NCBI GenBank assembly: GCA_965208945.1
Contig: OZ242366.1
Coordinates: 2,195,827-2,259,826, forward strand
Direction of reading: 5' to 3'
Source of the DNA: Bryobacterales bacterium
GTDB taxonomy: Bacteria; Acidobacteriota; Terriglobia; Bryobacterales; UBA6623
DNA: 64,000 bases
Position numbers and translations under genes: made by a program. Within the stretch, counting starts at the first letter, position 1; each line of letters starts with the position of its first letter. Below are positions 4,802 to 58,105 of the stretch, piece by piece. The notes under the pieces were generated by a model. The model did no database searches and was not told the DNA's origin. It saw only the letters and a program-made list of their open reading frames with translations.

Positions 4802-4978
4802 CCTGCATTTCTCACCACCCGACGGACGAAGCACGCCATATGACCGCCAGGACTTCGTTGCGCTTGCTTGCCGTGCTCAACGTACGGTTCAAGTACGCCT
4901 GCGCGCGCCAAGCGGCTCGCGCCTCGTCCTGACGGCCCTCTCACGCACTTCGCCTCGCCACGTGGTGAGAAATGCAGG
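4802..4978 (-). mobile_element. MITE copy A (short subfamily, the only reverse-oriented copy)
   Basis: 17-bp TIRs cctgcatttctcaccac / gtggtgagaaatgcagg, with CTAG on both flanks (4798-4801 and 4979-4982). The interior is the reverse complement of the other copies. Confidence 0.9.
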
Positions 4979-5017
4979 CTAGTTTCCGTTAGAATCAGCG
5001 GGCTGCAGGGAGAGTCT

Positions 5018-5953
5018 GTGAAAAAGAATCTTGGGCCCCTGATCGGCTTGGCGGCGGTTTACCTGCTGTTTTGCCTGTGGGCGGGAGAGCCGTTCTACTC
5101 GAACTTCAACCGCGTCACGGTGTTGACGCAGAGCGTGATCGTGACGGCGGGCGCGCTGGGGATGACGCTGATCATCATCTCGGGCGGGATCGATTTAAGC
5201 GCCGGATCGGTGATTGCTCTGTCGACGGTGGTGATCGCGAAGCTGCTCGAAGCGGGCTGGTCTCCGCTTGCGGCGGCGGGAGCGGGAATCCTGATCGGCG
5301 GGGCGTGCGGCGCGGCGAACGGCTTGCTGATCACGCGCTTGAAACTGGTCCCGTTCATCATCACCCTGGGAACGTTGTTGGTGTTTCGAGGGACGGCGAC
5401 GGGGTTGGCGGACGAGCAGAAGATCGACGCGCCGATCACTTGGCTGAACACGATGTTGGCGAAGTTTCCCGAACCGGCCTGGCTGATCGTGGCGCCGGGA
5501 GTCTGGGCGACGCTGCTGCTTGCCGTCGTCGTGGCTCTGCTGCTGAGGAACACCGTGCTGGGACGGCATATCTTCGCGATCGGCTCGAATGAGAACACTG
5601 CGCGGCTGTGCGGGATTCGCGTGGAACGTGTGAAGTTGGCGCTGTACTCGCTGGCCGGGACGTTGATCGGTTTCGCGGGGTTGATGCAGTTCAGCCGGCT
5701 GACCGTAGGCGATCCAACAGCGGCGAAGGGGATGGAACTGGACATCATCGCTGCGGTCGTGATCGGCGGCGGAAGCTTGAGCGGCGGCGAGGGGAGCGTG
5801 ACGGGGTCGGTTGCGGGGGCGATGTTGATGGCGGTCATCCGCAACGGGCTGAGCATGAAGGGCGTTCCGAACTGGGTCCAGGATGTGTTGACGGGGTCGA
5901 TCATCGTGGCGGCGGTAACGATGGACCGGCTGCGGCATCGGTCCGGAGGATAG
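5018..5953 (+). CDS. ABC transporter permease, ribose/sugar (RbsC-like) type
   Basis: GTG start after gcagggagag. Multi-TM protein with blocks typical of RbsC-type permeases (GGIDLSAGS, IFAIGSNENTARLCGI). The upstream part of the ORF-track ORF (4868-5017) is MITE sequence. Confidence 0.85.
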   Translation: MKKNLGPLIGLAAVYLLFCLWAGEPFYSNFNRVTVLTQSVIVTAGALGMTLIIISGGIDLSAGSVIALSTVVIAKLLEAGWSPLAAAGAGILIGGACGAANGLLITRLKLVPFIITLGTLLVFRGTATGLADEQKIDAPITWLNTMLAKFPEPAWLIVAPGVWATLLLAVVVALLLRNTVLGRHIFAIGSNENTARLCGIRVERVKLALYSLAGTLIGFAGLMQFSRLTVGDPTAAKGMELDIIAAVVIGGGSLSGGEGSVTGSVAGAMLMAVIRNGLSMKGVPNWVQDVLTGSIIVAAVTMDRLRHRSGG

Positions 5954-6107
5954 GAATCGTAGGGTCCGTCGGATGGGCGGACGCGCGTCTGCAGGGGCTC
6001 GCGAGCCTCTCGTCTCACCCTGGCTCCCGACACGACGTTTCCCTCTTGCTGAAATCGCGGCATACTGAACATATCGCTTCTTTGGGGTTCTGGCCCCGGT
6101 TGTTTCC

Positions 6108-7118
6108 ATGGACGGCTGGCGTTCTCAGATCTTTATTGTCTTTTTGCTGATGACGGTCGTCCTCGCGGCGGGGACACTGGGCTTTCAGGCTGTGGAAGGC
6201 TGGTCGTTGTTTGACAGCTTCTATATGACGCTGGTCACTCTGACGACAGTCGGCTACGAAGAGATACACCCCTTGTCATTTCGCGGCCGCGTTTTTGCCT
6301 CGGTTCTGATGCTGGCCGGGGTGACTACGATCTTGGCGTCCATCACGATTTTGGGCGATATGATGCTGAAGCTCGAGTTGGGAGACGCCTTCGGGCGCCG
6401 GCGGAGGAGGATCATGCTCAAGAAGCTCTCCGATCACTACATTGTTTGCGGGGCGGGTCGGGTCGGCCGGAGCGTCGTGCGAGAGCTGAAGCGAAACGAA
6501 GCCGACGTGCTGCTCATCGAGTCGGATCCGGAGCGCGCGAAGTGGGGCGCGGATCAGGATGTGCCGACGCTGGTTGCGGATGCCACGCAGGACTCGACGT
6601 TGCGGACCGCTCAAATCGAGACGGCGAACGGACTCGTTGCCGCTGTGGACTCCGACGCGCAGAACGTGTACGTGACGCTGTCGGCCAGGGTGCTGAACCC
6701 GAACCTGTTGATCGCGTCGCGAGCAAGCAGTCGGGATGCGGCGGATCGGCTGCGGCGGGCGGGAGCGAATACGGTGTTCACGCCCTATGCGTTCATCGGA
6801 CATCGGCTGGCGCAATCGATGCTGCGGCCTCATGCGCTGAGCTTGCTCGATGTTGCGTCCGCGTTCGGGAACTCGACCGATCTGGACATCGAGGCTGAAG
6901 AGGTACGGGTTTCCGAATCGAGTCGCATGGTTTCCCTGACGCTCGATGAGTCGCGCATCAAGTCGGATCTGGGGGTGATCGTGCTGGCCGCCAGGAAGCC
7001 GGGCGGAGAGATGCAATTCAATCCCGCTGGAGATACGCGGATCGAAGCCGGCGGCGTGTTCATCGTGATGGGCGAGCGGTCGAACTTGAAGAAACTGGAA
7101 GAGATTCTGGAGAGCTGA
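6108..7118 (+). CDS. 2-TM K+ channel-like protein with RCK/TrkA-N domain (MthK-like), atypical filter TVGYEE
   Basis: Pore helix plus filter reads FYMTLVTLTTVGYEE. Rossmann motif IVCGAGRVG. C-terminal TrkA-C-like region. Confidence 0.85.
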   Translation: MDGWRSQIFIVFLLMTVVLAAGTLGFQAVEGWSLFDSFYMTLVTLTTVGYEEIHPLSFRGRVFASVLMLAGVTTILASITILGDMMLKLELGDAFGRRRRRIMLKKLSDHYIVCGAGRVGRSVVRELKRNEADVLLIESDPERAKWGADQDVPTLVADATQDSTLRTAQIETANGLVAAVDSDAQNVYVTLSARVLNPNLLIASRASSRDAADRLRRAGANTVFTPYAFIGHRLAQSMLRPHALSLLDVASAFGNSTDLDIEAEEVRVSESSRMVSLTLDESRIKSDLGVIVLAARKPGGEMQFNPAGDTRIEAGGVFIVMGERSNLKKLEEILES

Positions 7119-7119
7119 G

Positions 7120-11642: not shown

Positions 11643-11681
11643 GCTCGCGCCGTCAGCTTTTCCAGGAGCTCAAAGGCTTGG

Positions 11682-11797
11682 CCTGCATTTCTCGCCCGGT
11701 GGTGAGGCGAAGTGCGTGAGAGGGCCGCCAGGCAAGCGCAACGAAGTCATGGCGGTCGTATCGCGTGCTTCACCCGTCAGGTGGTGAGAAATGCCGG
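11682..11797 (+). mobile_element. MITE copy B1 (internally deleted, 116 bp)
   Basis: Both TIR-like ends are present and the central hairpin region is missing. Shares the CTAG at 11798-11801 with B2. Confidence 0.85.
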
Positions 11798-11801
11798 CTA
11801 G

Positions 11802-11978
11802 CCTGCATTTCTCATCACGCGGCGAGGCGAAGTGGGTGAGAGGGCCGTCAGGACGAGGCGCGCGCCGCTTGGCGCGCGCAAGCGTACTTGAACAGTACGT
11901 TGAGCACGGCAAGCAAGCGCAACGAAGTCCTGGTGGTCGTATCGCGTGCTTCGACCGTCGGGTGATGAGAAATGCAGG
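11802..11978 (+). mobile_element. MITE copy B2 (short subfamily)
   Basis: Full-length copy. The right flank CTAA (11979-11982) contains the lpxI stop codon (TAG on the minus strand). Confidence 0.9.
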
Positions 11979-12779
11979 CTAATATCCTAGCACCGCGATG
12001 TCGGCCTGATGGGCGGACCGGAGAGCTTCTTCCATGTCGACAAAAAGGGTCTTGCCGGCTTCGACGGCCAGGGCGGTGGCTTTGGCTTCGTGCATTTTCA
12101 GGAACGTCGTCAGACCGATGACGGGGACATCGAAACGCATGTCCTGATTGGGTTTTGCCATCTTGACGATGGTGAGCGGGCGGCCGTTGCTGAGGCCGCC
12201 GGCCCGGGTGATGACGTCATTGGTGCCCTCCATGGCCTCGACGGCGACGCAGGCGCGTTCGCAGATGGCGACGGTTTGGCCGATGTCGTAGCTCACCAGG
12301 GCGCGGGCGACTTCCTTTCCGTATTCGATGTCCGCCCATTCGTCAGCGGTGGGTGACCGCGACGTCAGGCAACCCTCTGTTGCGAGGAAAGGCTCCAGAA
12401 ACCGCGTCGAATCGATCAGGTGGATGTCTTCGTCTTCCAGGAATCCGGCGACGGCGCCGAGCAGCGAGTCGGTGTTTTTGCGCGGCAGCGAAGCAAGTAG
12501 CTTCAGCAGTTTCCAGTCGGGACGGATCGAAGAGTAGATCCGCGCATGACGCACGCGGCCTGCCATGACGGCTTCGGTGATTCCTTCGTTTTGGAAGACG
12601 CGGACGAGCTTGGTCAGTTCGCCGAGGGAAACCCAGTGACAGCGATTGACTTGCTCTTCGAGTTCCGGGTCGGCCTCTCCTTTGATCGCGACGGCGATGA
12701 CTTCGTGCCCTTGCTGCCGCGCTGAGGAAGCGACCAGCATCGGAAACCGGCCTCCTCCGGCGATCAGACCGAGCTTCAT
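11979..12779 (-). CDS. lpxI: UDP-2,3-diacylglucosamine diphosphatase LpxI (DUF1009)
   Basis: 266 aa starting MKLGLIAGGGRFP. ATGA overlap with the lpxA stop. The remainder of the 403-aa track ORF overlaps lpxA out of frame. Confidence 0.85.
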   Translation of the reverse strand: MKLGLIAGGGRFPMLVASSARQQGHEVIAVAIKGEADPELEEQVNRCHWVSLGELTKLVRVFQNEGITEAVMAGRVRHARIYSSIRPDWKLLKLLASLPRKNTDSLLGAVAGFLEDEDIHLIDSTRFLEPFLATEGCLTSRSPTADEWADIEYGKEVARALVSYDIGQTVAICERACVAVEAMEGTNDVITRAGGLSNGRPLTIVKMAKPNQDMRFDVPVIGLTTFLKMHEAKATALAVEAGKTLFVDMEEALRSAHQADIAVLGY

Positions 12780-13552: not shown

Positions 13553-13563
13553 GGCGGGCTCCG

Positions 13564-20193: not shown

Positions 20194-20198
20194 CCTGG

Positions 20199-20373
20199 CC
20201 TGCTTTTCTCACCACGCGGCGAGGTGAAGTGCGTGAGAGGGCCGTCAGGACGAGGCGAGCCGCTTGGCGCGCGCAGGCGTACTTGAACAGTACGTTGAGC
20301 ACGGCAAGCAAGCGTAACGAAGTCCTGGCGGTCGTATCGCGTGCTTCGACCGTCAGGTGGTGAGAAATGCAGG
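20199..20373 (+). mobile_element. MITE copy C (short subfamily)
   Basis: TIRs present (the left one slightly degenerate, cctgcttttctcaccac). Flanks are CTGG and CTAG. Confidence 0.88.
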
Positions 20374-20579
20374 CTAGTCCCGCCCCCGCCCCGCTACGCG
20401 GTGCGGATCATTCGAGCAAGAAACATCCGGATCGGCGTCATGGCTGCTTGATTCGGACGATGTTTCAGGTCAGCGTTTCATTTCTTTTCTCTGAGAAACT
20501 GACAACGCCCGCAGGGGCTCTCGGCCCCAACCACTCACGCAAGCCGCCGATGTTCTATGATGTCCGTCGAAGATTCTGC

Positions 20580-22260: not shown

Positions 22261-22284
22261 GGAGGGAAGCGGGGTGTCCTTTAG

Positions 22285-22485
22285 CCTGTATTTCTCACCA
22301 CGCGGCGAGGCGAAGTGCGTGAGAGGGCCGTCAGGACGAGGCGCAAGCCGGGCGGAGGAAAAAGGCGCGAGCCGCTTGGCGCGCGCAGGCGTACTTGAAC
22401 CGTACGTTGAGCACGGCAAGCAAGCGCAACGAAGTCCTGGTGCTCGTATCGTGTGCTTCGACCGTTGGGTGGTGAGAAATGCAGG
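22285..22485 (+). mobile_element. MITE copy D (long subfamily, 201 bp)
   Basis: Flanked by a direct TTAG...TTAG (22281-22284 and 22486-22489). Contains the extra segment aagccgggcggaggaaaaaggcgcg. Confidence 0.9.
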
Positions 22486-23265
22486 TTAGAGCCTTTCGAG
22501 TTGTTCGCCCGCCACGGCAAAGGCGGCGAAAAGAGTTGCATTGTAGCTGGCGTGAACCAGGGTCGACGGCAGGATCGAACCGGTTCGAGCGCGCAATGTG
22601 CCGAACACGACCCCTACGCCCAGCAGCAGCAGCAGGTTCTGCCATCGCCAGCCGTACTGCGTGCCGTGTACCAGTGAGAACAGGGCGCTCGTGGCGAAGA
22701 CCGCGAAGCCCGCCCCTCGGGAGCGCTCGAATACGGGGAACAGGAAGCCCCGAAAGAAAGTCTCTTCCAATACCGGGGCGAAAAGGATGCCGAAGACGGC
22801 GAGTAGGGCCATCACCAGCGGGTCTTCGAGAAGGATTTCGAGAGGCAGTTTCTCGTCCACCTGCGGCAGCAGCATTGAGACGAGAACCACGCTAATGGCG
22901 AGAAAAGGACCCGTGGCCAGGTATTGAACGGGTGAGCCCTCATAGCGGACCCAGCCGATCGAAGGCCCGAATCGCAAGCGGTACTTGACGGCAACGATCA
23001 GATAGATGAATGCGAAGACCGCGGCCCAGAGCAACATCGAAATCGCCACATTCAGAGGTCCCTGCACGCGCGGCTCTTCCAGGTTGACCTCCCAATCGAA
23101 CACGAATCCCATCCCATAGAGGCACCCGACGGCGATCACCGAGAGCATGAACAGGGCAATCACCCCAAAGACAAGCAGGTAGAGAAGATCGAGATATCCC
23201 CAGGTTTCCGGTTGCTCGGGGTCGTCTGGAGGCAAGAGCGGGGGTGGCTCGCTGGGGTGTTCCAT
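22486..23265 (-). CDS. CPBP family intramembrane glutamic endopeptidase (CAAX protease-like)
   Basis: Motifs EETFFRGF, SLVHG, HASYN. The stop TAA lies inside the TTAG flank of MITE D. An alternative start at 23292 uses the ATG in the MITE E1 terminus. Confidence 0.85.
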   Translation of the reverse strand: MEHPSEPPPLLPPDDPEQPETWGYLDLLYLLVFGVIALFMLSVIAVGCLYGMGFVFDWEVNLEEPRVQGPLNVAISMLLWAAVFAFIYLIVAVKYRLRFGPSIGWVRYEGSPVQYLATGPFLAISVVLVSMLLPQVDEKLPLEILLEDPLVMALLAVFGILFAPVLEETFFRGFLFPVFERSRGAGFAVFATSALFSLVHGTQYGWRWQNLLLLLGVGVVFGTLRARTGSILPSTLVHASYNATLFAAFAVAGEQLERL

Positions 23266-23285
23266 CGGCGAGCGCCGGTCGCTAG

Positions 23286-23666
23286 CCTGCATGTCTCACC
23301 ACGTGGCGAGGCGAAGTGGGTGAGAGGACCGTCAGGACTAGCCTGCATGTCTCACCACGCGGCGAGGTGAAGTGCGTGAGAGGGCCGTCAGGACGAGGCG
23401 CGAGCCGCTTGGCGCGCGCAGGCGTACTTGACAGTACGTTGAGCACGGCAAGCAAGCGCAACGAAGTCCTGGCGGTCGTATCGCGTGCTTCGGCCGTCGG
23501 GTGGTGAGAAATGCAGGCTAGGCGCAAGCCGGGCGGAGGAAAAAGGCGCGAGCCGCTTGGCGCGCGCAGGCGTACTTGAACAGTACGTTGAGTACGGCAA
23601 GCAAACGCAACGAAGTCCTGGCGGTCGTATGGCGTGCTTCGACCGTCGGGTGGTGAGAAATGCAGG
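23286..23666 (+). mobile_element. MITE copy E1 (long subfamily) carrying nested copy E2
   Basis: E1 is interrupted after gtcaggac by E2. E1 sequence resumes at 23522 with gcgcaagccggg. Confidence 0.88.
23342..23517 (+). mobile_element. MITE copy E2 (short subfamily) nested in E1
   Basis: Complete TIRs, with CTAG on both sides (23338-23341 and 23518-23521). Confidence 0.88.
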
Positions 23667-23783
23667 CTGGGGTTGTCCGGTCGCAAAGTATCCATCGTAA
23701 CGCGGAATGGAGGCGTCAAAGCCCGTAGTGGCCTCGTTTTCGACGTCCGTGAGGTTTCTGAGGTCAGGCCGGATAATGGGGCT

Positions 23784-24317: not shown

Positions 24318-24386
24318 TGTGAAACCCCATGATCCTCGCCGCGGATAGGTCGAAACAAGGCCGGTGCGACGGTACGGAAGAGTTAG

Positions 24387-24420
24387 CCTGCATTTCTCAC
24401 CACGTCGTTACACAGGCAGG
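24387..24420. mobile_element. Mini-MITE F (34 bp)
   Basis: Sequence cctgcatttctcaccacgtcgttacacaggcagg flanked by TTAG and CTAA. The right flank holds the stop codon of the 24421-24912 gene. Confidence 0.7.
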
Positions 24421-27068: not shown

Positions 27069-27243
27069 AATCGTTTACCGACACCGTGCCCCTTCGGAGG
27101 CCCGGACAGTTGCAGCGAACGCTTGGATCACGTTCGCTGCAGATTCAAAATCGCCCGTTTCTCCGTTCGAAGCAGGTACCAGTCTCCGGCATTTTGATTT
27201 AGGAATGTTCTGCTGCCGAGAAGACGCGTGCGTCTCAGGCTAG

Positions 27244-27419
27244 CCTGCATTTCTCACCACGCGGCGAGGCGAAGTGCGTGAGAGGGCCGTCAGGACGAGG
27301 CGCGCGCCGCTTGGCGCGCGCAGGCGTACTTGACGGTACGTTGAGCACGGCAAGCAAGCGCAACGAAGTCCTGGCGGTCATATCGTGTGCTTCGACCGTC
27401 GAGTGGTGAGAAATGCAGG
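27244..27419 (+). mobile_element. MITE copy G1 (short subfamily)
   Basis: TIRs present, with CTAG on both flanks (27240-27243 and 27420-27423). Confidence 0.9.
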
Positions 27420-27515
27420 CTAGAGCTTTCAGTGCACCCGGAATCGGTCCAAGAAAATAGCTAATGTAACACATTCCGAAAACCGCAAGTGCATTGAACC
27501 ACGGTGCGTTTCTAG

Positions 27516-27692
27516 CCTGCATTTCTCACCACGTGGCGAGGCGAAGTGGGTGAGAGGGCCGTCAGGACGAGGCGCGCGCCGCTTGGCGCGCGCAGGCGTA
27601 CTTGAACAGTACGTTGAGCACGGCAAGCAAGCGCAACGAAGTCATGACGGTCATATGGCGTGCTTCGACCGTCGGGTGGTGAGAAATGCGGG
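27516..27692 (+). mobile_element. MITE copy G2 (short subfamily)
   Basis: TIRs present. Flanks are CTAG and CTAA. Separated from G1 by an 88-bp AT-richer spacer. Confidence 0.9.
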
Positions 27693-27840
27693 CTAAGCGG
27701 CTGCGGGCTGGCGGCGCGGGCATCGCACTGCGCCGGGGAACATTCCGCGAGACGAGACCTCGCTCGACGTCAACACCCCCGCTGGTGCAGGCCTGCATCG
27801 TGCCCGTCCCAGCGCGGCATCGACAACGACTTCTGAGAGA

Positions 27841-29197: not shown

Positions 29198-29225
29198 TGC
29201 AGTGGACCTGAGAGAACGTGAGCTG

Positions 29226-29412
29226 ACCTGTATTCTCACCACGAGGCGAGGCGAAGTGGGTGAGAGGGCCGACAGGACGAGGCGCGGGCCGGGCGGAGGA
29301 AAAAGGCGCGTGCAACATGGCTTTTAAAGGTTTTTACGAATCACGAGTCACGAAACACGAATCACGGCCTTTTTATCGCGTGCTTCGACCGTCGGGTAGT
29401 GAGAAATGCAGG
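29226..29412 (+). mobile_element. MITE copy H (heptad-bearing variant)
   Basis: Normal left arm and right TIR. The centre is replaced by ggcttttaaaggttttt plus an (A/T)CACGAR heptad array. Flanks are CTGA and TCAG. Confidence 0.85.
29334..29368. repeat. Heptad tandem repeat (W)CACGAR x5 inside MITE H
   Basis: Units read ttacgaa tcacgag tcacgaa acacgaa tcacggc. Confidence 0.85.
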
Positions 29413-29552
29413 TCAGAGCGGCTGCGATCATAACGTGCCGGACAGACTGGGTCAAGCGCCGCGGACACTTCCAAATGGAGTCGACTCGCCTTTGCGGTCC
29501 GATTTTGTTGATCTTTCCCCGAGAATGAGAGATTCTATGTAGTTTTCCTTTG

Positions 29553-31056: not shown

Positions 31057-31059
31057 GAT

Positions 31060-31377: not shown

Positions 31378-31548
31378 CCCAAGGACCCTTGTGGCAGTCG
31401 CACCCGGAGCCGTCCGGTTCCACCGTGCTTGTGGGGCAGAACAGCGGGCTGTTTTGGAGTCCTTGGCCTCTGTACAGGCGTTGAAGCGTTGCGCTGAACC
31501 AACTTCCTGCCGAAGACCAGGCCGCCGGAACTTCGACTGCCGGTCTAG

Positions 31549-31749
31549 CCTGCATTTCTAACCACGTGGCGAGGCGAAGTGGGTGAGAGGGCCGTCAGGA
31601 CTAGGCGCAAGCCGGGCGGAGGAAAAAGGCGCGAGCCGCTTGGCGCGCGCAGGCGTACTTGAACCGTACGTTGAGCACGGCAAGCAAGCGCAACGAAGTC
31701 CTGGCGGTCGTATCGCGTGCTTCGACCGTTGGGTGGTGAGAAATACAGG
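31549..31749 (+). mobile_element. MITE copy I (long subfamily) with an unoccupied internal CTAG
   Basis: Flanks are CTAG and TCAG. Internal sequence gtcaggactaggcgcaag is the empty form of the site occupied in E1 and K. Confidence 0.9.
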
Positions 31750-31760
31750 TCAGGCGGTCT

Positions 31761-33237: not shown

Positions 33238-33269
33238 CACTAGCCACTGGCCACTAATCACTATCCACT
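33238..33269. repeat. CACTNNN x5 tandem heptads
   Basis: Units read cact agc cact ggc cact aat cact atc cact. Confidence 0.85.
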
Positions 33270-33282
33270 GCTTTTTTGCTTT

Positions 33283-33310
33283 TCACGAAACACGAGACCC
33301 GAAACACGGC
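33283..33310. repeat. Heptad tandem repeat (W)CACGAR x4
   Basis: Units read tcacgaa acacgag acccgaa acacggc. Confidence 0.8.
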
Positions 33311-33625
33311 CTTTTCTGTGGCTCGTTTGGTGCCCGTTGGTACTGAAGCCCTTCAGTCTTTTTTTCGGCCGGGGGACGGTTTAGGTTGAAAGTGATAACG
33401 CCGTTGTTGGGAACGAAAACCCCATCCGCGCCCGTCGGGGCCACAAGTCGGGTGGGGACGGAAGAGCCGCCCGGTCGCTACTTACCTGCGCGTTGTGGCG
33501 CGGCATGGGGCGGTTATGGCGCGGAATGGGCGGCCGCCGTCCCCCGCGCTGGCAACACGGCCTTTCCTGTTCACCAGACGTCAGATATTTCTTCTGGAGC
33601 GAACCAAGCCCCCCAACCATGGTTT

Positions 33626-33667
33626 TCACGAAACACGAAACACGAGACACGAGGCACGAATCACAGC
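33626..33667. repeat. Heptad tandem repeat (W)CACGAR x6
   Basis: Units read tcacgaa acacgaa acacgag acacgag gcacgaa tcacagc. Confidence 0.85.
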
Positions 33668-33680
33668 TTCCCTACCCACG

Positions 33681-33720
33681 ATTTCCCACCATTTCCCACG
33701 ATTTCCCGGCATTTCCCGGG
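33681..33720. repeat. 10-bp phased repeat ATTTCCCNNN x4
   Basis: Units read atttcccacc atttcccacg atttcccggc atttcccggg, with an exact 10-bp period. Confidence 0.9.
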
Positions 33721-33918
33721 CCCCCCACCCCCTCTCCGCCGATCAAGTGTCCACGAGCCGTCCGCCTTTCTTGGTCAGCCGCCCGGGACTGCCGCCCCCG
33801 CCCGGTCGCTGCTTTCCTGGGCGTTGTGGCGCGGCATGGGGCGGCTATGGCGCGGCATGGGGTGCCCCGAGCCACTGTTCACGCACCATCCTCACCAGCA
33901 ACATAACCATTCGGGTTT

Positions 33919-33953
33919 TCACGAAACACGAGACACGACACACGAATCACGGC
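33919..33953. repeat. Heptad tandem repeat (W)CACGAR x5
   Basis: Units read tcacgaa acacgag acacgac acacgaa tcacggc. Confidence 0.85.
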
Positions 33954-34290
33954 TTTTTTTCACATGCTGCGACCGTCGGGTGGTGAGAAATGCAGGCTAA
34001 CGCCCTGCTCGACGATCTGGTGGCTCAACAGCCGGCGGAAAAACGGACTAAGCGCGTCAGTCGGCAAGCCCGCAGGCTTCAAAGGGGCATGTACGAAGCG
34101 CGGGAAAACGAGTGGAAAGGACTTTTTCCGAATCCCGATTCGGTTCAAGATTCGGAATTCCCCACAATTCGTCACAATTCGTCGGAAAGATTCGGATAAG
34201 CACCTGCCGCCCATCAAGCGCCCCCGCGCACTGCGGCAACCGGGACATCGGCTTCATGGATGCATCGCGTCCCCGCCTGACCTTCCCTGG

Positions 34291-36206: not shown

Positions 36207-36225
36207 ACCCGTGGGACGGAAGCAT

Positions 36226-39459: not shown

Positions 39460-39467
39460 GAGCCGGA

Positions 39468-41337: not shown

Positions 41338-41533
41338 CACGCTTGGCGCGCGCAGGTGTACTTGATCGTACATCGAGCACGGCAAGCAAGCGCAACGTAG
41401 TCATGGCGGTCGTATCGCCTCCTTCGGCCCTCGGGTTACGAGACACGCAACACGGCCTTTAAGGTTTTTTACGAAACACGAAACACGGCCGTTTTATCGC
41501 GTGTTCCGGCCGTCATGTGGTGAGAAATGCAGG
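41338..41533 (+). mobile_element. MITE copy L (left arm missing; heptad-bearing right part)
   Basis: Begins within the gcttggcgcgcgcagg centre and ends in gtggtgagaaatgcagg plus CTAG. Contains two heptad arrays at 41436-41489. Confidence 0.8.
41436..41489. repeat. Two (W)CACGMR heptad arrays separated by ctttaaggtttt
   Basis: Units read ttacgag acacgca acacggc ... ttacgaa acacgaa acacggc. Confidence 0.8.
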
Positions 41534-41559
41534 CTAGCCCCCCCGACTCCCATCTCATC

Positions 41560-43638: not shown

Positions 43639-43648
43639 GCTTCCCTTC

Positions 43649-44803: not shown

Positions 44804-44807
44804 CGAG

Positions 44808-44984
44808 CCTGCATGTCTCACCACGCGGCTAGGTGAAGTGCGTGAGAGGGTCGTTAGGACGAGGCGAGCGCCGCTTGGCGCGCACAGGCGTACTTGAACA
44901 GTACGTCGAGCACGGCGAGCAAGCACAACAAAGTGATGGCGGTCGTATCGCGTGCTTCGGCCGTCGGAAGCTGAGAAATGCAGG
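44808..44984 (+). mobile_element. MITE copy M (short subfamily)
   Basis: The right flank CTAA (44985-44988) contains the stop codon (TAG on the minus strand) of the aldo/keto reductase gene. Confidence 0.88.
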
Positions 44985-45950
44985 CTAACTGCCCTGATAC
45001 TCGTGTCTGCGCCGGCCTTCGAGCGCCGTGCGCGCGTCGCGCTTCCAGTCTTCCAGGTCGGGGCCGGCAAGCTCTGCGGCTCTCCCGCGCAGCTCGGCCA
45101 TCACATCCCTGTTGTACTGCGAGAACTGCTGCGCGATGCGGACATCGTCTTCGATCTGACCGATCGTCGTGCATCCGACCGCGAGGCAATGGATCGGAAG
45201 GCTCAGCACGTAGTTGATGCATTGCCCGACCCCGAATGACTGGAGCAGCTTCGAGTTGGCCGTGCTCTTCATGCCCTGGATGCCCAGGTTCTGCTTTTGG
45301 GCTTCCGGCAGCACCTTCTGTTCGAAGCTCAAATACGACGGATCGGCTGGATTGAGCGGCATCAGGATCGTGTCGAAGTCCTTGTAAAGCCGCAGCATCT
45401 CGAGATGGGCTTCCGGATCGTGATGCCCGGTAAAACCGATGTAGCGGCATTTGCCCGCTTTCTTTGCCGCCTCGAAAGCTTCGATCGCACCGCCGGGAGC
45501 GAAGATGGCTTTGAGGTCCTCATCTGACTTGACGGAGTGAATCTGCCACAGATCGAGATAGTCGGTCTTGAGTCTCTTCAGCGACTTGTGTAGTTCTTCC
45601 TCGGCTTCCTTGCGGGTTCGCTTCACGCTCTTCGTGGTCAGGAAGACCTCCTTGCGGACATCCTCGAGCGCTTCGCCGTAGACCACCTCGGAGCGGCCGT
45701 TCCAGTAGCTGTGTGCATTGTCGAAGTAGTTGAGCCCGAGTTCATAGGAGCGGCGCGTGATGGCCTTGGCCTGATCGAACGTGCAAAGCGGAAAACGCCC
45801 ACCGGCTTGTCCGACGAGCGTGAGTTTCTCGCCGGTCTTGCCGAACGTCCTTTTCGGTACGTCACCGGCTTTCAGGCGGCTCGCCCGGGTACTGCCCGCC
45901 GCGATGCTCAACCCCGCAACAGCACTGCCGAAGAAGCTGCGTCGTTTCAT
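44985..45950 (-). CDS. Aldo/keto reductase, Tat-type signal
   Basis: Starts MKRRSFFGSAVAGLSIAAG. AKR blocks (YFDNAHSY, GFTGHH). Confidence 0.88.
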   Translation of the reverse strand: MKRRSFFGSAVAGLSIAAGSTRASRLKAGDVPKRTFGKTGEKLTLVGQAGGRFPLCTFDQAKAITRRSYELGLNYFDNAHSYWNGRSEVVYGEALEDVRKEVFLTTKSVKRTRKEAEEELHKSLKRLKTDYLDLWQIHSVKSDEDLKAIFAPGGAIEAFEAAKKAGKCRYIGFTGHHDPEAHLEMLRLYKDFDTILMPLNPADPSYLSFEQKVLPEAQKQNLGIQGMKSTANSKLLQSFGVGQCINYVLSLPIHCLAVGCTTIGQIEDDVRIAQQFSQYNRDVMAELRGRAAELAGPDLEDWKRDARTALEGRRRHEYQGS

Positions 45951-46540: not shown

Positions 46541-46576
46541 ATCCACTGGGACCGATTGCTCCGGGGAAGTGCTGTC

Positions 46577-48673: not shown

Positions 48674-48814
48674 CCGGCTCGTTCCGATGCCGCTGTCCGG
48701 TCGAGAGTGCGGGGAATCGCCGGTTTTCGCGGCAGTGGCGGTGCTCCCGCGCGGATTTCCGAAAACGGCGCCGTCAAGTCAAGACTTGGTAAAAAAGAGG
48801 GCATTGACTCAGAT

Positions 48815-50512: not shown

Positions 50513-50533
50513 GAAGTTTATAATTGAGACGCC

Positions 50534-51016
50534 TTGTCATACCTCGAGTGGCTTGAGAACTCACTGACGGACAAGCTCGAAGAGCAGCCGGTCGGAGAGC
50601 CTGTCGCCCTTCGCGCCTACCTGGAGCTGAGCGACGATCACGGGCACCTGGTTCCGACCGCCGGGGCGATGGCGGCTGTCGCAGGCGCTTGGTTCGGTGC
50701 GGGATTGCCCAAGGTCTATGCTCTCGGCGGAGCCGACCAGGGATACGTTTCGGTCACCGCGACGTATCCTGGCGGACAGACCGCTCTGATCGTCGCCGAG
50801 TCCTTGAGCGCAGCCGCCGGTGAGCGGCCCTCCGTGCGTCTCTTGCTGATCGGCAACCATGGCACGATGGAGTTCGCTGATTCGCCGGGTGCGGATTTCC
50901 GCACGGTCGATCGAACGCCGCCTGCCGGCGCGAGCAGCGAGGCTCTGAGCCGGGCGATAGCTGAGTCGCTCCGGTCCAGCGCCCCCGTGGAAGGGAGCAC
51001 GCACAGCCGTGGCTAG
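50534..51016 (+). CDS. Hypothetical protein (resembles a Gfo/Idh/MocA C-terminal-type domain)
   Basis: 160-aa ORF with a TTG start. Its stop TAG lies inside the left CTAG flank of MITE N. Start and function are uncertain. Confidence 0.45.
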   Translation: MSYLEWLENSLTDKLEEQPVGEPVALRAYLELSDDHGHLVPTAGAMAAVAGAWFGAGLPKVYALGGADQGYVSVTATYPGGQTALIVAESLSAAAGERPSVRLLLIGNHGTMEFADSPGADFRTVDRTPPAGASSEALSRAIAESLRSSAPVEGSTHSRG

Positions 51017-51192
51017 CCTGCATATCTCCCCGCGTGGGGACGTGAAGTGCGTGAGAGGGCCGTCAGGACGAGGCGCGCGCCGCTTGGCGCGCGCAGGCGT
51101 ACTTGATCGTACATCGAGTACGGCAAGCAAGCGCAACAAAGTTATGGCGGCCGTATCGCGTGCTTCGGGTGTCAGGCGGTGAGATATGCAGG
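51017..51192 (+). mobile_element. MITE copy N (short subfamily, variant centre gtacttgatcgtacatcgag)
   Basis: Flanks are CTAG and CTAA. The ATG in the right TIR (51186) opens the downstream ORF. Confidence 0.88.
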
Positions 51193-52340
51193 CTAAACCT
51201 TCGTTCGGCGTTCTGCTCGTAACGGGCGGGATGACCCACCAGGAGAACTACGGAGAGGGATTCCTCGCCGACCCGCGCGCAAGAGTCGTCGGCCTTACCG
51301 ATGAACCCGATGTCGACGAACGCCGCGACCGCCTGAACCGCGGATTGGCCGATCAGTTCGGCATCCCCTTCCTGCCGGATATCCGCGAGGCGCTCGCGCG
51401 GTCCGATGTGCACCTCGTCTCCGTCTGCTCGGAGTTCGAGCGGCGCACCCGCGTCTCTCAAATCTGTGCGGAAGCCGGCAAGCATCTCTACGTCGACAAG
51501 CCCATGGTGACGAAGATGGCGGAGGCCGACAAACTCGTGGCGACAGCCGGGCGGCGTGGTTTGCGCGGGCAGATGTTCACTCAGGTCGGCGCGCCGTACG
51601 CGAGGCGGCTGAAAGGAATCGTCGATTCCGGTGCTTTGGGCGAGATCAAGTCGATCCAGTGTGACCTCATGTTCGCGAAGGGTTTCACCGGCGGCGCTCC
51701 GCTTGGCGTGCCGCGGCGCGAGCACGATCCGCCCAGGCGGTTCACGTTCCCGGACGCCAAGCGTGAGATCTGGACGACCGCGGTCTATTCGCTCACCTTG
51801 ATCCGCTGGCTCCTCGGCGGACCCCGCTTTCGTAGCGTCTACGCCACGAGCGCCAACTACTTTTTCGAGGAGCACTACAAACGCGATGTCGAGGACTTCG
51901 GCACGCTTGCTCTCACGCTCGACAACGGCGTCACGGCGTCGCTGATCGCCGGCCGGATCGGTTGGCACAGTCACCGCAGTTCCGGCCCGAACTTCACGCG
52001 CATCATCGGTAGCAAGCGCAGCTTCCTTCTTGACGCGCACAGCCCGCGCTTCGAAATCTCGTCCGACCGAAAGTGGGCGCCGCCGGCGAAGGACCCCATC
52101 GATCCCATGGGCTTCTGGTCGAGCACCATGGAGCGTGGGAACGCTCAACCCAAGCCCTTTTGGCATGAGCCGCCGACCGCGCCCGGGCAATCGGATCAGG
52201 CTCTCTTCCTCGATTGCCTCGAACAGGACAAAGAGCCGGAAGTCACGCTGGACGATGCCGCGCAGGCATCCGAGGCCATGCTGGCCGCCTACCGGTCCGC
52301 TGCGACAGGGCAGGTGGTGGCGTTGCCTCTGCCGCGCTAG
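51186..52340 (+). CDS. Gfo/Idh/MocA family oxidoreductase
   Basis: 384 aa. Rossmann beta1 plus Gly-rich loop FGVLLVTGG begins at codon 7. The only in-frame start after the upstream TGA (51179-51181) is the ATG inside the MITE N terminus. The stop TAG lies in the CTAG flank of MITE K. Confidence 0.8.
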   Translation: MQAKPSFGVLLVTGGMTHQENYGEGFLADPRARVVGLTDEPDVDERRDRLNRGLADQFGIPFLPDIREALARSDVHLVSVCSEFERRTRVSQICAEAGKHLYVDKPMVTKMAEADKLVATAGRRGLRGQMFTQVGAPYARRLKGIVDSGALGEIKSIQCDLMFAKGFTGGAPLGVPRREHDPPRRFTFPDAKREIWTTAVYSLTLIRWLLGGPRFRSVYATSANYFFEEHYKRDVEDFGTLALTLDNGVTASLIAGRIGWHSHRSSGPNFTRIIGSKRSFLLDAHSPRFEISSDRKWAPPAKDPIDPMGFWSSTMERGNAQPKPFWHEPPTAPGQSDQALFLDCLEQDKEPEVTLDDAAQASEAMLAAYRSAATGQVVALPLPR

Positions 52341-52396
52341 CCTGCATTTTTCACGACGTGGCGAGGCGAAGTGGGTGAGAGGGCCGTCAGGACTAG

Positions 52397-54120
52397 CCCG
52401 GAAATCTCACCAGGGGGTAGGAAAAGGGCTGCCTGGTGTGGCATAAAACATTTATGTCCAAAACGTTAGCGCCACAAGCCGAAAGCAGCCCTCTGTCAAC
52501 AGAGTGTATCCAATCCAGCTTCACCTTTGCCAAGCATTTTCGACGCCAGGTGAGCGCTCGCTTTGACGGCGGGGTGATCAGTTCCGACGGCGGCGCGCTG
52601 CTGTTACGGGAGGTGGACCAGCGCATCAACCTGCTGCCGCGCTTGGCGGGCTGCTTCGAGGATGGCCGCGATTCGCGGCGCATCGAACACCTGGTGGGGG
52701 AGTTGGTCTCGCAGCGGGTCTACGGGCTGGCGCTGGGATACGAAGACCTCAACGATCACGACGAGTTGCGGCGCGATCCGGTGCTGGCGCTGCTGGCGGG
52801 CAAGAGCGACGTGTCCGGGCAGCGCCGCCGCCGCGAGCGTGACCGCGGCCAGCCGCTGGCGGGCAAGAGCACGTTGCAGCGACTGGAACGAACGACCGAT
52901 GGCGTGGATCGTTACCAGAAGGTCCGCTGCGTCAGCGAAGCGATCGACCGCCTGTTGGTGGACGTGTTCGTGGAAGCGCACTCGCAGGAGCCGGCCGAGG
53001 TCCTACTCGATATCGACGCCACCGACACGCCTTTGCACGGGCAGCAGGAGGGACGTTTCTTTCACGGCTACTACAGACACTACTGCTACTTGCCGCTGTA
53101 CATCTTCAGCGGCGAGCACGTGTTGTGCGCGCGGCAGCGGGTATCGAATCAAGACGCGGCGGCGGGCAGCGTAGCGGAGTTGGAGAGGATCGTGGCGCAG
53201 CTCCGGGCCGCGTGGCCGGAGGTGAAGATCATCCTGCGTGGGGACTCGGGGTTTTGTCGGGACGAGTTGCTGAGTTGGTGCGAAGAGAACCGGGTGGACT
53301 ATGTGGTGGGGCTGGCGCGCAACGAGCGGCTGCAGTCGTTGATCGAGGAGGCGCTCGAAGAGGCGGCCAGCAGGCAGCAGCAAACGGGCCGGCCGGCGCG
53401 GGCCTACAGCGAGTTCGAGTATCGGACGCTTGAGAGTTGGAGCCGGGAGCGGCGGGTGGTGGCGAAAGCCGAACAGTTGGTGGGCAAGCAGAACCCGCGC
53501 TACGTGGTGACGTCGCTGGACGGGGAGCGCTGGCCGCCGCGGCGGTTGTATGAACAACTCTACTGCGGGCGCGGGGAGGCGGAGAATCGCATCAAGGAGC
53601 AGTTGAGTCTGTTCGCGGATCGCATGAGTACGGAGACGCTACGGGCCAATCAGTTGCGGCTGCATCTGTCGTCGCTGGCGTATGTGTTGCTGGTGGGACT
53701 GCGGCGGCTGGGGCTGAAGGGCACGCAGTGGGCGCGGGCGCAGACCGAGACGATCCGGCGGGGGCTGTTGAAGATCGGCGCGCTGGTGAAGGTGAGCGTG
53801 CGGCGGGTGCATCTGTCGCTGGCCAGCGGCTACCCCGATGAGGAGGCGTTCGCGGCGGTGTATCGGGCGCTGCGTCCGCCGGGACCAGCAACTGTTTGAC
53901 AACAGTGAGCGAACCGAAAAACGGGGCCGTCGGCAGCCTCAGGGGCGAAGTGTTTCTCAAATCGGCCACAACCCGAAAAACGAACATTCGCGAGCCGCTA
54001 AGGGCAGCGCAAAACGCCCCGTAGAGGCCTTCACTCACCCTCGCCGCGAAGAATACCGTGTTTCAGACCCTATTTCGGCCTCCCTCAACCCATCGCGAAG
54101 CCGCTGGTGAGAAATGCAGG
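52397..54120 (+). mobile_element. IS1380-family insertion sequence (1724 bp), probable autonomous partner of the MITE
   Basis: Bounded by CTAG direct repeats (52393-52396 and 54121-54124). IRL is cccggaaatctcaccagg and IRR is gctggtgagaaatgcagg. IRR matches the MITE TIR at 16 of 17 positions. Confidence 0.85.
52436..53899 (+). CDS. IS1380 family DDE transposase
   Basis: 487 aa. N-terminal FDGGVISSDGGALLLREVD and the blocks LDIDATDTPLHGQQEGRFFHGYY and RGDSGFCR are typical of this family, identified from memory. Confidence 0.85.
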   Translation: MWHKTFMSKTLAPQAESSPLSTECIQSSFTFAKHFRRQVSARFDGGVISSDGGALLLREVDQRINLLPRLAGCFEDGRDSRRIEHLVGELVSQRVYGLALGYEDLNDHDELRRDPVLALLAGKSDVSGQRRRRERDRGQPLAGKSTLQRLERTTDGVDRYQKVRCVSEAIDRLLVDVFVEAHSQEPAEVLLDIDATDTPLHGQQEGRFFHGYYRHYCYLPLYIFSGEHVLCARQRVSNQDAAAGSVAELERIVAQLRAAWPEVKIILRGDSGFCRDELLSWCEENRVDYVVGLARNERLQSLIEEALEEAASRQQQTGRPARAYSEFEYRTLESWSRERRVVAKAEQLVGKQNPRYVVTSLDGERWPPRRLYEQLYCGRGEAENRIKEQLSLFADRMSTETLRANQLRLHLSSLAYVLLVGLRRLGLKGTQWARAQTETIRRGLLKIGALVKVSVRRVHLSLASGYPDEEAFAAVYRALRPPGPATV

Positions 54121-54281
54121 CTAGGCGCAAGCCGGGCGAAGGAAAAAGGCGCGAGCCGCTTGGCGCGCGCAGGCGTACTTATGGGATGGTTCGCTCCCAC
54201 TTCCGCTGCGTCGTCGAGTTCGGCCATGCTGGTAGCAACGGCCGTCCCCGGCCGCAGTTCACGAACCGAGAGGAAACCATC

Positions 54282-55355
54282 ATGGCAACGACCCAGCGAT
54301 CATCCCGCAAGAGCGTATGGAAGGAGGTCGTCACGATCGGCCTCGATCTAGCAAAACACAACGTCGACTTGGTCGGCTTGGACGCAACCGGCCGGGTGCT
54401 CACCCGTCGCCGCTACTCGAAGGGCAAGCTGCTGGAGGTGACCGCCCAGATGCAGCCCTGCCGTATCGGCATGGAAGCCTGCTGCGGCGCCCATCACCTG
54501 GGCCGCCAACTGCTGGCCCAGGGGCACGACGTGAAGCTGATGCCGCCCAAATATGTGAAGCCCTTTGTGAAGCGCGACAAGAACGACTCGACGGACGCCG
54601 AGGCCTGCGCGGAAGCCTGTCTGCGGCCGAGCATGCGCTTCGTGGCGGTCAAGAGCGAGCAACAACTGTCGATGCAGTCGCTGCACCGCTATCGCTCGCG
54701 GCTGGTGGGCAACTCGACGCAGTTGATCAACCAGGCGCGCGCCTTTCTGCTGGAACGCGGCATCACCCTTCCACAGGGCAAGCGTTGGTTTGTGGTCCGT
54801 CTGCCGGAGATCCTCGAGGACGCCGATAACGGCCTGTCCGACGAAATGCGGGCGCTGCTGGCGGGCATGTTTGCCGAATGGCAAGTGCTGGCAGAGAAGA
54901 TTCAGCAAGTCAACACCTATCTGCTGAGGAAAGCGCAGGCGAGCGAGGCCTGCCGGCGGCTCAGAGAGATCCCCGGCATCGGCGTGCAGACAGCGACGGC
55001 CTTGGTGGCGACGATCGGCAACGCCGAGGCCTTCGAGAAGGGGCGCGACGTCGCTGCTTGGTTGGGTCTGGTGCCGAGAGAGTACTCCAGCGGAGGCAAG
55101 CAGCGCTTGGGAGGCATCAGCAAGCGCGGCAACCGCTACGTCCGGACGCTGCTGGTGCACTGTGCCCGCTCGAGCCTCGACGTGCTCGCGAAGCGCAGCG
55201 ACCAACTCGGCCAGTGGCTGCGGCGGATGCTCCTGAACAAAGATCGGCGGGTCGTGATCGTGGCGCTGGCGGCACGGCTGGCGCGCATCGCATGGGCCTT
55301 GCTGAGCAGCGGCCAGCGCTTCTCTCAACAGCGGCAACCAGCCCCGGCGGGTTAA
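54282..55355 (+). CDS. IS110 family DEDD transposase/recombinase
   Basis: 357 aa. Blocks IGLDLAK, GMEAC, KNDSTDAEA, and C-terminal GISKRGNRYVR. Confidence 0.9.
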   Translation: MATTQRSSRKSVWKEVVTIGLDLAKHNVDLVGLDATGRVLTRRRYSKGKLLEVTAQMQPCRIGMEACCGAHHLGRQLLAQGHDVKLMPPKYVKPFVKRDKNDSTDAEACAEACLRPSMRFVAVKSEQQLSMQSLHRYRSRLVGNSTQLINQARAFLLERGITLPQGKRWFVVRLPEILEDADNGLSDEMRALLAGMFAEWQVLAEKIQQVNTYLLRKAQASEACRRLREIPGIGVQTATALVATIGNAEAFEKGRDVAAWLGLVPREYSSGGKQRLGGISKRGNRYVRTLLVHCARSSLDVLAKRSDQLGQWLRRMLLNKDRRVVIVALAARLARIAWALLSSGQRFSQQRQPAPAG

Positions 55356-55618
55356 CCGCCCTGCGGTCCGCCGTAGCACTACCAGGAGCTCACAGTTTGT
55401 CTGCTTACTCCCGATTGATGGACAAAACGGTCGTACCGGCGTCACCGAATCCTGTTACTGTTCATGGCCCTCACAGGTCGGCGTACTTATGAGGAGCGGG
55501 ACGTGCGGACCCCATCATGGCCCGGAACCAGCGCGGTTCCACCTAGAGGTCGGATATATTGGCGCAGACCAACGTTCAGCAAGAAGGAATAGGTGGACAT
55601 CCCGGGAGCGAACCATAT
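55356..55618 (+). ncRNA. Candidate guide (bridge/seek-type) RNA region in the IS110-family right end
   Basis: Contains tactgttca (55456-55464), the reverse complement of the right target flank tgaacagta. Also contains ggcgtactt (55480-55488), identical to the left target flank. A hairpin ggaacc-agcgc-ggttcc is present. No fold model could be run. Confidence 0.4.
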
Positions 55619-55864
55619 ATTGAACAGTACGTTGAGCACGGCAAGCAAGCGCAACGAAGTCCTGGCGGTCGTATCGCGTGCTTAGACCGCCGGGTGGCGA
55701 GAAATGTAGGCTAGTCGCTCCCGGAACGGTTCCCTGCCATCCCGCGCGCCAAGAGCGCCGGGCGATCGCTTGACGTAGGTGAGCCCTGAGCCGCTATCGA
55801 AGATCAGAGCGGTGTGATAACCTGACAGCAGCTCGACCCGCATACTCATTTGGGAGGAACGAAC

Positions 55865-58101: not shown

Positions 58102-58105
58102 CTAG

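Follow-up and report, generated by a model that had tools for sequence, protein, structure and literature searches.

The window, as we call the whole stretch of DNA analysed here, is a 64,000-nt segment of contig OZ242366.1 from a Bryobacterales bacterium (positions 2,195,827 to 2,259,826 of the forward strand). The region is ordinary core chromosome, with genes for TsaE, Nnr, LpxI, a TonB-like protein and adenosine deaminase in a conserved gene order; on these grounds, an origin of the repeats described below in a genomic island, an integrative element or a plasmid was rejected. Dispersed in it are 15 to 18 copies (Table 1) of a short, non-coding MITE (miniature inverted-repeat transposable element) related to the IS1380 family of insertion sequences (IS). 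A preliminary description of the window had reported that all copies but one point in the same direction. Scoring with an orientation profile gave the same 14 : 1 count (A '-'; B1, B2, C, D, E1, E2, G1, G2, H, I, K, L, M and N '+'), for which the binomial probability is indeed about 0.001 (2 x 16/32768 = 0.00098), and the flanking genes do lie on both strands. Comparison with other loci shows that this local co-orientation is a strong and replicated rule: a copy nearly always shares the direction of the copies within about 10-20 kb of it, the polarity of each domain being arbitrary.

The MITE is about 185 bp long and carries, in every full copy (copies were read and aligned), the 17-bp terminal inverted repeats CCTGCATTTCTCACCAC ... 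GTGGTGAGAAATGCAGG. Its ends, CCTGCA.../...TGCAGG, lie at YTAR, and its two long, imperfectly complementary arms flank two small hairpins at the centre. The arm sequences noted earlier gave 11 and 8 matches in the window at three mismatches or fewer, versus 0 in shuffled sequences. The orientation profile was built from 10 full copies, and a score of at least 150 bits defined a strong full-length copy. Scores are well separated between strands, about 200 bits on one versus about 20-40 on the other, and this margin of about 170 bits bears out the earlier statement that the arms differ and that copies can therefore be oriented. Down to a score of 40 bits, at least 205 elements were found in 101 loci. 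The open reading frames that overlap MITE copies are solely opposite-strand artefacts of G+C-rich DNA. Three features of the window had previously been overlooked: the '+' composite relative of Table 1 and two end remnants, at 24383-24420 and 58102-58143. The second of these, a mini-element of 34 bp, is an old internal-deletion derivative; adjoining it, at about 58209, is an empty site that holds a '+' copy in two related loci, L044 and L173.

Table 1. MITE copies, related elements and insertion sequences in the window (L followed by a number designates a sampled locus of another genome)
Feature	Position	Strand	Remarks
MITE copy A	4797..4983	-	full length, the one copy in reverse; flanked by CTAG at either end; scores 218 bits ('-') and 41 bits ('+')
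MITE copy B1	11679..11801	+	internally deleted; joins B2 at a common CTAG
MITE copy B2	11797..11983	+	full length
MITE copy C	20195..20378	+	opposite orientation at the same site in L177; deletion remnant in L178
Piece X beside C	20379..20470	+	90 bp, degenerate right end at its end
MITE copy D	22281..22490	+	24-nt variant with internal CTAG; duplicated TTAG; in L177 and L178 a clean empty TTAG site
MITE copy E1	23282..23668	+	24-nt variant, interrupted by E2
MITE copy E2	23337..23521	+	sits in the internal CTAG of E1
End remnant	24383..24420	-	full '+' copy at the corresponding place in L177
MITE copy G1	27239..27424	+	clean empty CTAG site in L177 and L178
MITE copy G2	27511..27697	+	in L177, not in L178
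MITE copy H	29223..29416	+	centre made of heptad repeats (ACGAATC)n; in L177, not in L178
MITE copy I	31544..31753	+	24-nt variant; in L177, not in L178
Composite relative	33240..34003	+	about 760 bp; CTAG start, heptad arrays, terminator-like hairpin, family right end; not in L177 or L178
MITE copy K	41340..41538	+	5'-truncated copy plus a second right-end fragment
MITE copy L	44804..44989	+	L173 synteny breaks at its right end
MITE copy M	51012..51197	+	not in L173 or L174
MITE copy N	52337..55715	+	24-nt variant split by two insertion sequences; not in L173 or L174
IS1380-family element	52397..54120	+	in the internal CTAG of N; ends CCCGGAAATCTCACCAG and CTGGTGAGAAATGCAGG; CTAG-flanked
IS110-family element	54182..55619	+	in the loop of the central hairpin of N, GTACT-TGAAC-AGTAC
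Mini-element	58102..58143		34 bp, left end fused to right end between CTAGs; kept in L044 (91-96% identical)

Around 46 full copies, from the window and the other loci, the target duplication is YTAR, with matched CTAG in 10 cases, TTAG in 7 and TTAA in 5. The earlier argument that a palindromic CTAG target cannot itself orient the element has to be corrected to that extent, the target being mostly but not strictly CTAG. In the same 46 copies the non-palindromic duplications are one-sided in the frame of the element (TTAG/TTAG 7, CTAA/CTAA 0), and the flanks outside YTAR are G-rich on the 5' side and C-rich on the 3' side, i.e. reverse-complement symmetric. The insertion complex seems to read an asymmetric target, perhaps a hairpin loop. 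As a source of the regional order an asymmetric target was rejected, the flanks being symmetric and the TTAG excess confined to single sites. A variant of the MITE with a 24-nt insert carries an internal CTAG which is occupied by other elements in E1 and N (by E2 and by an IS, respectively), and the same nest is found in L001. CTAG is about six-fold depleted in the window (35 observed versus about 217 expected from composition); 24 of the 35 are at or within MITE or IS copies and most of the others resemble end remnants (21201, 24126, 33240). Most of the targets that the family prefers are thus of its own making.

The IS1380-family element nested in copy N encodes a transposase (52454-53899) with the DDE_Tnp_1_4 domain (PF13701, E = 6.7e-147, 490 bits), a 95% homologue of which (P0247) carries the NCBI name 'IS1380 family transposase'; ISEcp1 belongs to the same family. 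The right end of the element, CTGGTGAGAAATGCAGG, equals the MITE end at 16/17 positions. This similarity, together with the shared CTAG flanks, points to the MITE as a derivative of an IS1380-family element. The nested IS is likely its autonomous partner, and the MITE would be mobilised by the IS1380-family DDE transposase, as judged from the common ends and target. The IS110-family element lies exactly in a hairpin loop, in agreement with the palindromic-repeat targeting of that family. Both IS elements had been described as being on the plus strand: this holds for their transposase genes in the window but is not general, the same IS1380-family element being opposite to its host MITE in L001.

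To sample the family, one genome per species was scanned with a conserved 24-mer, which gave at least 92 blocks of 8 kb with record coordinates. Searches with three proteins of the window added longer pieces from close relatives, as well as six 21-kb loci around IS1380 copies on two contigs spanning whole chromosomes. The comparison set comprised 97 further independent loci from more than 15 Bryobacterales genomes, including short-read and long-read assemblies. Among the matches listed, the family is almost confined to metagenome-assembled genomes of the Bryobacterales (Acidobacteriota).

Counted over the loci outside the window, the bias vanishes: 48 loci are '+' and 49 are '-'. A 50:50 ratio of this kind had been named in the preliminary description as one of two outcomes that would refute its reading, the other being a lack of correlation with replichore or any other positional variable. 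The first was indeed found; as to the second, orientation is strongly correlated with a positional variable that was not considered there, namely the direction of neighbouring copies. Among all pairs of copies at most 8 kb apart outside the window, 131 were concordant and 9 discordant. For adjacent pairs in which both copies scored at least 150 bits, the counts were 17 : 0 in the 8-kb loci and 7 : 0 in the six new 21-kb loci, where pairs 8-14 kb apart gave 22 : 1. Adjacent pairs pooled over the 97 independent loci stood at 75 : 7 (P = 1.7e-15), or 66 : 6 without those less than 300 bp apart. When the best copy of each locus was taken to set the polarity, the other copies followed it in a ratio of 76 : 6 (46 loci, 40 of them unanimous). 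The lower-scoring copies followed the strong ones in a ratio of 57 : 6, and fragments were thus not enriched among the discordant copies; for that reason, a faster decay of discordant copies was rejected as an explanation.

The order is lost beyond a few tens of kilobases. Adjacent elements more than 30 kb apart gave 17 : 16 or 23 : 17, so that the ratio of inverted to direct pairs goes from 7 : 75 at up to about 8-14 kb to about 1 : 1 beyond 30 kb. The copies behave as a chain whose links, 2-3 kb long, are mismatched in about 3-8% of cases, from which domains of about 50-100 kb with arbitrary polarity are expected. The window holds one such domain, of at least 47 kb, with copy A at its left edge.

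Chance, a single local copying burst, or an artefact of assembly or of orientation calling would be the least demanding explanations. They could be invoked for the window alone, where tandem and nested copies are not independent and where fragments are harder to orient. They are as good as refuted, given the replication of the rule in 97 loci from more than 15 genomes assembled from short and long reads, the P value quoted above, the persistence of the ratio without the closest pairs and the wide strand margin. Furthermore, neighbours are not closer relatives: near and distant copies of the same genome are equally similar (0.885 versus 0.891), the best-matching partner of a copy is not local (P = 0.22 and 0.89) and variants are intermixed within clusters. 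Local hopping and local duplication were rejected on the same evidence.

Four loci from relatives were used to follow the insertions in time: L177 (about 96% identical to and colinear with window positions 14.6-37.7 kb, from a 5.4-Mb contig), L178 (which covers 16.8-38.1 kb at about 95% identity), L173 (colinear with 45-61.6 kb, about 94% identical) and L044 (91-96% identical to 57.5-64 kb). Empty sites are clean, with a single TTAG at D and a single CTAG at G1 in the relatives and a single YTAR at the 58.2-kb site in the window, and single-copy sites were also found at E, G2, H and I. In L178 the 21 kb colinear with the window contain no copy at all. Each copy therefore arrived by a separate insertion at a YTAR site, while the order of the genes around it was otherwise conserved. 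Thirteen insertions are younger than the splits between these relatives of about 95% identity. They are those found only in the lineage of the window (D, E1, E2, G1, the 33.2-kb composite, M and N), those common to the window and L177 (G2, H and I), and three others, of which one (24.35 kb) is confined to L177, one (56.8 kb) to L173 and one (58.2 kb) is common to L173 and L044. All 13, distributed among three lineages in the clade of the window, are '+' in the frame of the window, which indicates that polarity was kept through time and in separate lineages.

Exceptions to the rule are few. The clear ones are two inverted pairs set tightly round a single gene (L015, 4770-5832; L173, 4777-6095), with copies 711 and 937 bp apart; in L173 this gene encodes a LytTR response regulator, and such pairs resemble small composite transposons. 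Site C is a different case. In L177 the element found there is inverted, with an identical left junction and with flanks, CTGG ... CCAG, that are mutual reverse complements, which suggests an in-place flip through the terminal repeats or a re-insertion. Insertion sequences have reportedly been seen, in one study, to invert in place by recombination between their terminal repeats. In L178 the element is deleted between 7-bp CATTTCT repeats, and in L177 the 90-bp piece X is inverted beside another copy 4 kb away; site C (20195-20470 in the window, compared with reverse-complement coordinates 5576-5860 and 9050-9470 of L177) is thus a hotspot of change. Neither the deletion in L178 nor the flip in L177 is linked to an inverted pair.

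Coupling to the direction of replication was the first explanation offered for the bias of the window, and several observations give it some substance. The '+' strand of the window is G-rich across 5-40 kb irrespective of gene strand, and the sign of the skew agrees with polarity in four of the six informative loci of its clade. Strong replication-linked biases are well known. Concordance is seen here on the megabase scale in some genomes, where successive loci read -,-,-,-,+ over 5 Mb (ctg717612c) and -,-,-,-,+,+ (CBDFJA contig_3). The '+' strand of the element also folds much better than the '-' strand, as predicted with ViennaRNA (-110 versus -85.5 kcal/mol as RNA, -64.6 versus -48.4 as DNA). 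Its RNA fold is the more stable one in 107 of 108 copies, the consensus hairpin having 9 G.T pairs versus 1 A.C, and an orientation-dependent loss of copies is therefore conceivable. Moreover, a peptide of the IS1380 transposase binds the beta clamp (PMC3971601). The process would then consist, in keeping with fork direction, of clamp-directed insertion or of faster hairpin-mediated loss of one orientation, followed by inversions that divide both replication arms into blocks with either polarity.

Most of the evidence is nonetheless unfavourable to replication coupling, which we regard as improbable. Besides the 48 : 49 balance between loci, the two orientations are mixed along single chromosomes. 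Chromosome OZ241991.1, the best sampled, has 28 '+' and 32 '-' hits, and its 24 sampled loci read + -- +++ ---- + - ++ --- + - ++ -- +, i.e. at least 12 changes of polarity; these 13 runs match the random expectation, and the best model with two arcs fits only 16 of the 24 loci (hand count). In several genomes polarity flips within 7-40 kb. No link with composition was found either: GC skew differed by -0.002 +/- 0.005 and third-codon-position (GC3) skew by -0.006 +/- 0.009 according to orientation (442 genes in 87 loci, gene strand regressed out), and in 77 loci orientation was unrelated to local GC or GC3 skew (sign table 20/19/22/16; r = -0.06 with GC3 skew). A screen for polar k-mers retained only the heptad repeats of related elements and, once these were masked, none above random-orientation controls; private substitutions in the 108 copies were strand-symmetric (e.g. 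C>T 2.38 versus G>A 2.24 per site). In the window, copies K, L, M and N are still '+' where the skew vanishes or reverses. On ctg717612c the markers conflict: the rpoB cluster points the same way as the MITEs, and the opposite is true of rpsO-pnp, of the strand of most genes and of the skew at L179. Two of the four orthologous locus pairs at 85% identity or more (L010/L092 and L042/L067) have opposite polarities in different species, so that a region does not keep its polarity from one species to another. Replication coupling would also require, in several genomes, that inversions inside a replication arm, a class normally counter-selected, had been fixed by the dozen. Finally, a survey of 1,806 chromosomes found the IS1380 family to be without orientation bias (PMC3971601).

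A separate feature of the window concerns the skew itself. Between 4868 and 19116 a GC skew independent of gene strand (0.11-0.28 per gene, 0.18-0.47 at third positions, with T>A as well) spans core genes on both strands. Its onset is exactly at copy A, it has faded by about 20 kb, and it is extreme, far above ordinary replication skew.

That the bias goes far beyond chance and is independent of gene direction, as had been proposed, is upheld by the larger sample. Coding strand and element agree in direction at a frequency of 0.46 (confidence interval 0.40-0.52), and the strands of flanking genes, in the frame of the element, are balanced (++ 14, -- 17, +- 21, -+ 8); coupling to transcription and avoidance of double-stranded RNA were rejected for this reason. 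The same independence bears on a possible function of the copies as an oriented array of polar protein-binding sites, or of strand-specific RNA or DNA hairpin signals, kept parallel by selection. The strand asymmetry of the hairpin would suit such a role, as would the heptad-array cargo with its terminator-like hairpin, co-oriented with the MITEs. On the other hand, orientation is unrelated to the direction of transcription, and no Rfam family was matched in the scanned window and loci L004, L011 and L046. In addition, copies decay neutrally and symmetrically, and their insertions are polymorphic between close lineages, L178 doing without any of them in the colinear region. We therefore hold selection for a functional array to be very unlikely.

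The heptad arrays (CACGAAA/CACGAGA/CACGAAT) occur in the window at 33240-34003 and 29336-29366, in L004 at 5300-6330, and in L011 and L022. Often followed by the terminator-like hairpin GTACTGAAGCCCTTCAGTC and a run of Ts, they are an alternative cargo of the MITE, found also in related elements with CTAG at their limits, and may serve as binding sites close to the ends of the element or as a small RNA module.

A rule that bears on relative orientation, in the absence of a mark in the host DNA, designates the resident copies themselves as the cue. Our tentative proposal is that a copy takes its orientation at insertion, under the influence of copies already resident in the DNA domain. The rule would thus be imposed at the insertion step. 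The two arms being unlike, a resident copy bound by transposase would form a polar complex, and an incoming transposase-element complex would touch it during target capture when both share an interwound supercoiled domain. Slithering inside such a domain always brings two sites together in a fixed relative direction; the target DNA would be met in a fixed relative direction too, and the insertion would take a fixed relative orientation. The first copy of a region would fix its polarity, and later copies, from donors anywhere in the genome, would inherit it. The rare exceptions would come from in-place flipping (site C in L177) or from the edges of domains. A 'strand-specific step in transposition', one of the causes suggested earlier, is possible in this wide sense that orientation would be fixed at insertion. 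The full statement of the proposal is that resident IS1380-family MITE copies dictate the orientation of newcomers over at least 10 kb, as a positive and oriented counterpart of target immunity, with supercoil topology as the probable reader and self-propagating polarity domains of 50-100 kb; taken as a whole it is somewhat less probable than its core.

Known systems speak for this reading. It is on this topological principle, i.e. through supercoiling, that Tn3 resolvase, the Gin and Hin invertases and the Mu enhancer detect how sites kilobases apart are oriented to each other, and in the target immunity of Mu and Tn7 resident transposon ends affect target choice in cis over about 20 kb or more.

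The alternative that comes nearest, which we consider possible though rather unlikely, is that inverted neighbours are excluded after insertion. Copies would insert in random orientation and lineages with opposed ones would afterwards be lost or fail to fix, leaving co-oriented survivors and a self-propagating polarity. The loss could occur because a 180-bp inverted repeat promotes inversions, or through fold-backs or inverted dimers in single-stranded DNA at forks or during resection of excision breaks. Exclusion predicts the same pattern as guidance at insertion, namely a relative rule, an arbitrary polarity and a decay with distance. A difference no larger than a few times 1/Ne would suffice at mutation-selection-drift balance, and loss of elements does occur, as seen for copy C in L178. 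Precedents also exist: in the human genome inverted Alu pairs are scarcer than direct ones up to distances of 350 kb (PMC3215922), inverted dimers arise in yeast from inverted repeats that lie near a break with a spacer of 1 kb between them (PMC6103520), and in 79% of bacterial genomes long repeats are more rarely inverted than direct (PMC9297083).

Several features of the data incline us, by a small measure, to guidance at insertion rather than exclusion. The effect is about 20-fold or more, whereas those of the precedents lie between a few and some tens of per cent, and such near all-or-none behaviour is what mechanistic biases usually show. Direct neighbours, which run an equal, mirror-image risk of deletion, are abundant. 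The copies are short, and neighbours are about 89% identical over 180 bp, i.e. about 11% diverged, which makes them poor substrates for recombination; each copy is by itself, according to folding predictions, a strong hairpin, and yet large numbers are tolerated. Discordance does not depend on homology, the homology shared by discordant pairs being no lower than that of concordant ones (P = 0.33), and the surviving exceptions are the tightest inverted pairs, which should be the least stable. Finally, the inverted IS pairs of composite transposons such as Tn5 and Tn10, a few kilobases apart, are stable, and a strong exclusion of 180-bp inverted pairs is unlikely for that reason.

Guidance at insertion has its own difficulties. 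To our knowledge, no transposon takes its orientation from a resident copy, and we know of essentially no study of the mechanism of IS1380-family transposition. The proposed setting of orientation at insertion is drawn from surviving genomic copies rather than from insertion events, and since genomes show survivors only, an efficient filter would account for the 13 concordant young insertions just as well. The range of the rule, 14 kb or more and 51 kb in the window, exceeds the supercoil domains of about 10 kb in E. coli, a mismatch which is avoided if polarity is relayed from copy to copy. The nested IS1380 copy escapes the rule, with the orientation of its host MITE in the window and the opposite one in L001. 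Lastly, a concordance of 12 : 3 between loci more than 100 kb apart, in a subset of genomes picked post hoc, is not predicted by a purely local rule.

Other features of the window and of its relatives may be mentioned. Paired PSCyt1/PSCyt2/PSD1 and DUF1501 genes, of a type usually associated with Planctomycetes, are present twice in the 64 kb (13-4654 and 36199-40862), and a PhdYeFM/PIN toxin-antitoxin pair lies at 30646-31341. The colinearity of L173 with the window stops exactly at the right end of copy L (44970 in the window, 8398 in L173); upstream genes differ, which implies a rearrangement or a replacement with its breakpoint at the MITE. Exact-protein look-ups of the window proteins gave no match, and a metagenome scan found only relatives at about 80% amino-acid identity, with two syntenic genes and without MITE copies. 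Proteins 96-99% identical to the M19 peptidase of the window (P0121-P0125) are present in public metagenomes on contigs of 2-5 kb only; the MITEs probably break short-read assemblies of this population.

The orientation bias of bacterial mobile elements has hitherto been read as a mark of replication or transcription, and the order described here, though near-total, is local, relative, hidden in 50:50 counts and independent of both processes. If it is set at insertion, a DDE transposase would read the orientation of a distant resident copy, which would be a new property of transposition; the copies might then be a natural recorder of DNA domain structure, and the sizes of their domains might report topological domains. 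If it is the work of a filter, this would be by far the strongest known exclusion of inverted repeats and would quantify the intolerance of bacteria to inverted repeats several kilobases apart. Either way, the change of the inverted-to-direct pair ratio with distance is a simple test for any repeat family.

How the element compares with known systems can be summarized as follows. It has the characteristics of MITEs derived from DDE IS: a short, non-coding sequence, inverted-repeat ends, a 4-bp duplication with clean empty sites, ends shared with a transposase-bearing element, and nested or tandem insertion at self-made CTAGs. It differs from them in that both of its ends resemble the right end of the IS, instead of one each. 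Searches of the literature gave no report of a MITE or IS family whose copies align with their neighbours irrespective of replication and genes, and we are aware of none. Elements oriented by replication (IS200/IS605 and REP-RAYT, which act on single-stranded DNA, the TnsE pathway of Tn7, and the families surveyed in PMC3971601) have a similarly near-total, long-range bias, and the strand-asymmetric hairpin is another point in common; however, they flip at the origin and terminus and follow GC skew, whereas the MITE is 50:50, flips over tens of kilobases and is independent of skew, with inverted-repeat ends, target duplications and a DDE rather than an HUH transposase.

The arrays of attC sites in integrons, e.g. 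the Vibrio cholerae repeats, are also imperfect palindromes of 100-200 bp, strand-asymmetric and co-oriented between genes of either strand. Unlike them, the MITE lacks a GTTRRRY core and has core genes in conserved order between its copies (TsaE, LpxI, Nnr). No integrase was found among the approximately 30 of about 47 called window genes scanned against Pfam. The clean empty sites and YTAR duplications rule out integron-like cassettes. With human Alu repeats (PMC3215922) and the bacterial deficit of inverted repeats (PMC9297083) the MITE shares a shortage of inverted pairs that fades with distance and is independent of genes; but inverted pairs are scarcer by about 10-fold to more than 20-fold up to 8-14 kb, whereas for Alu the ratio deviates only slightly, and the bacterial survey describes the effect inside and between replication arms rather than in local domains.

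The nearest analogues, if orientation is set at insertion, would be the topology-sensing systems (Tn3 resolvase, Gin/Hin and the Mu enhancer) and target immunity as seen in Mu and Tn7; the latter keeps insertions away and is not known to affect their orientation. As in both groups, a resident site would act in cis over kilobases and, as in the topology-sensing systems, the relative orientation of sites would be read with near-total fidelity.

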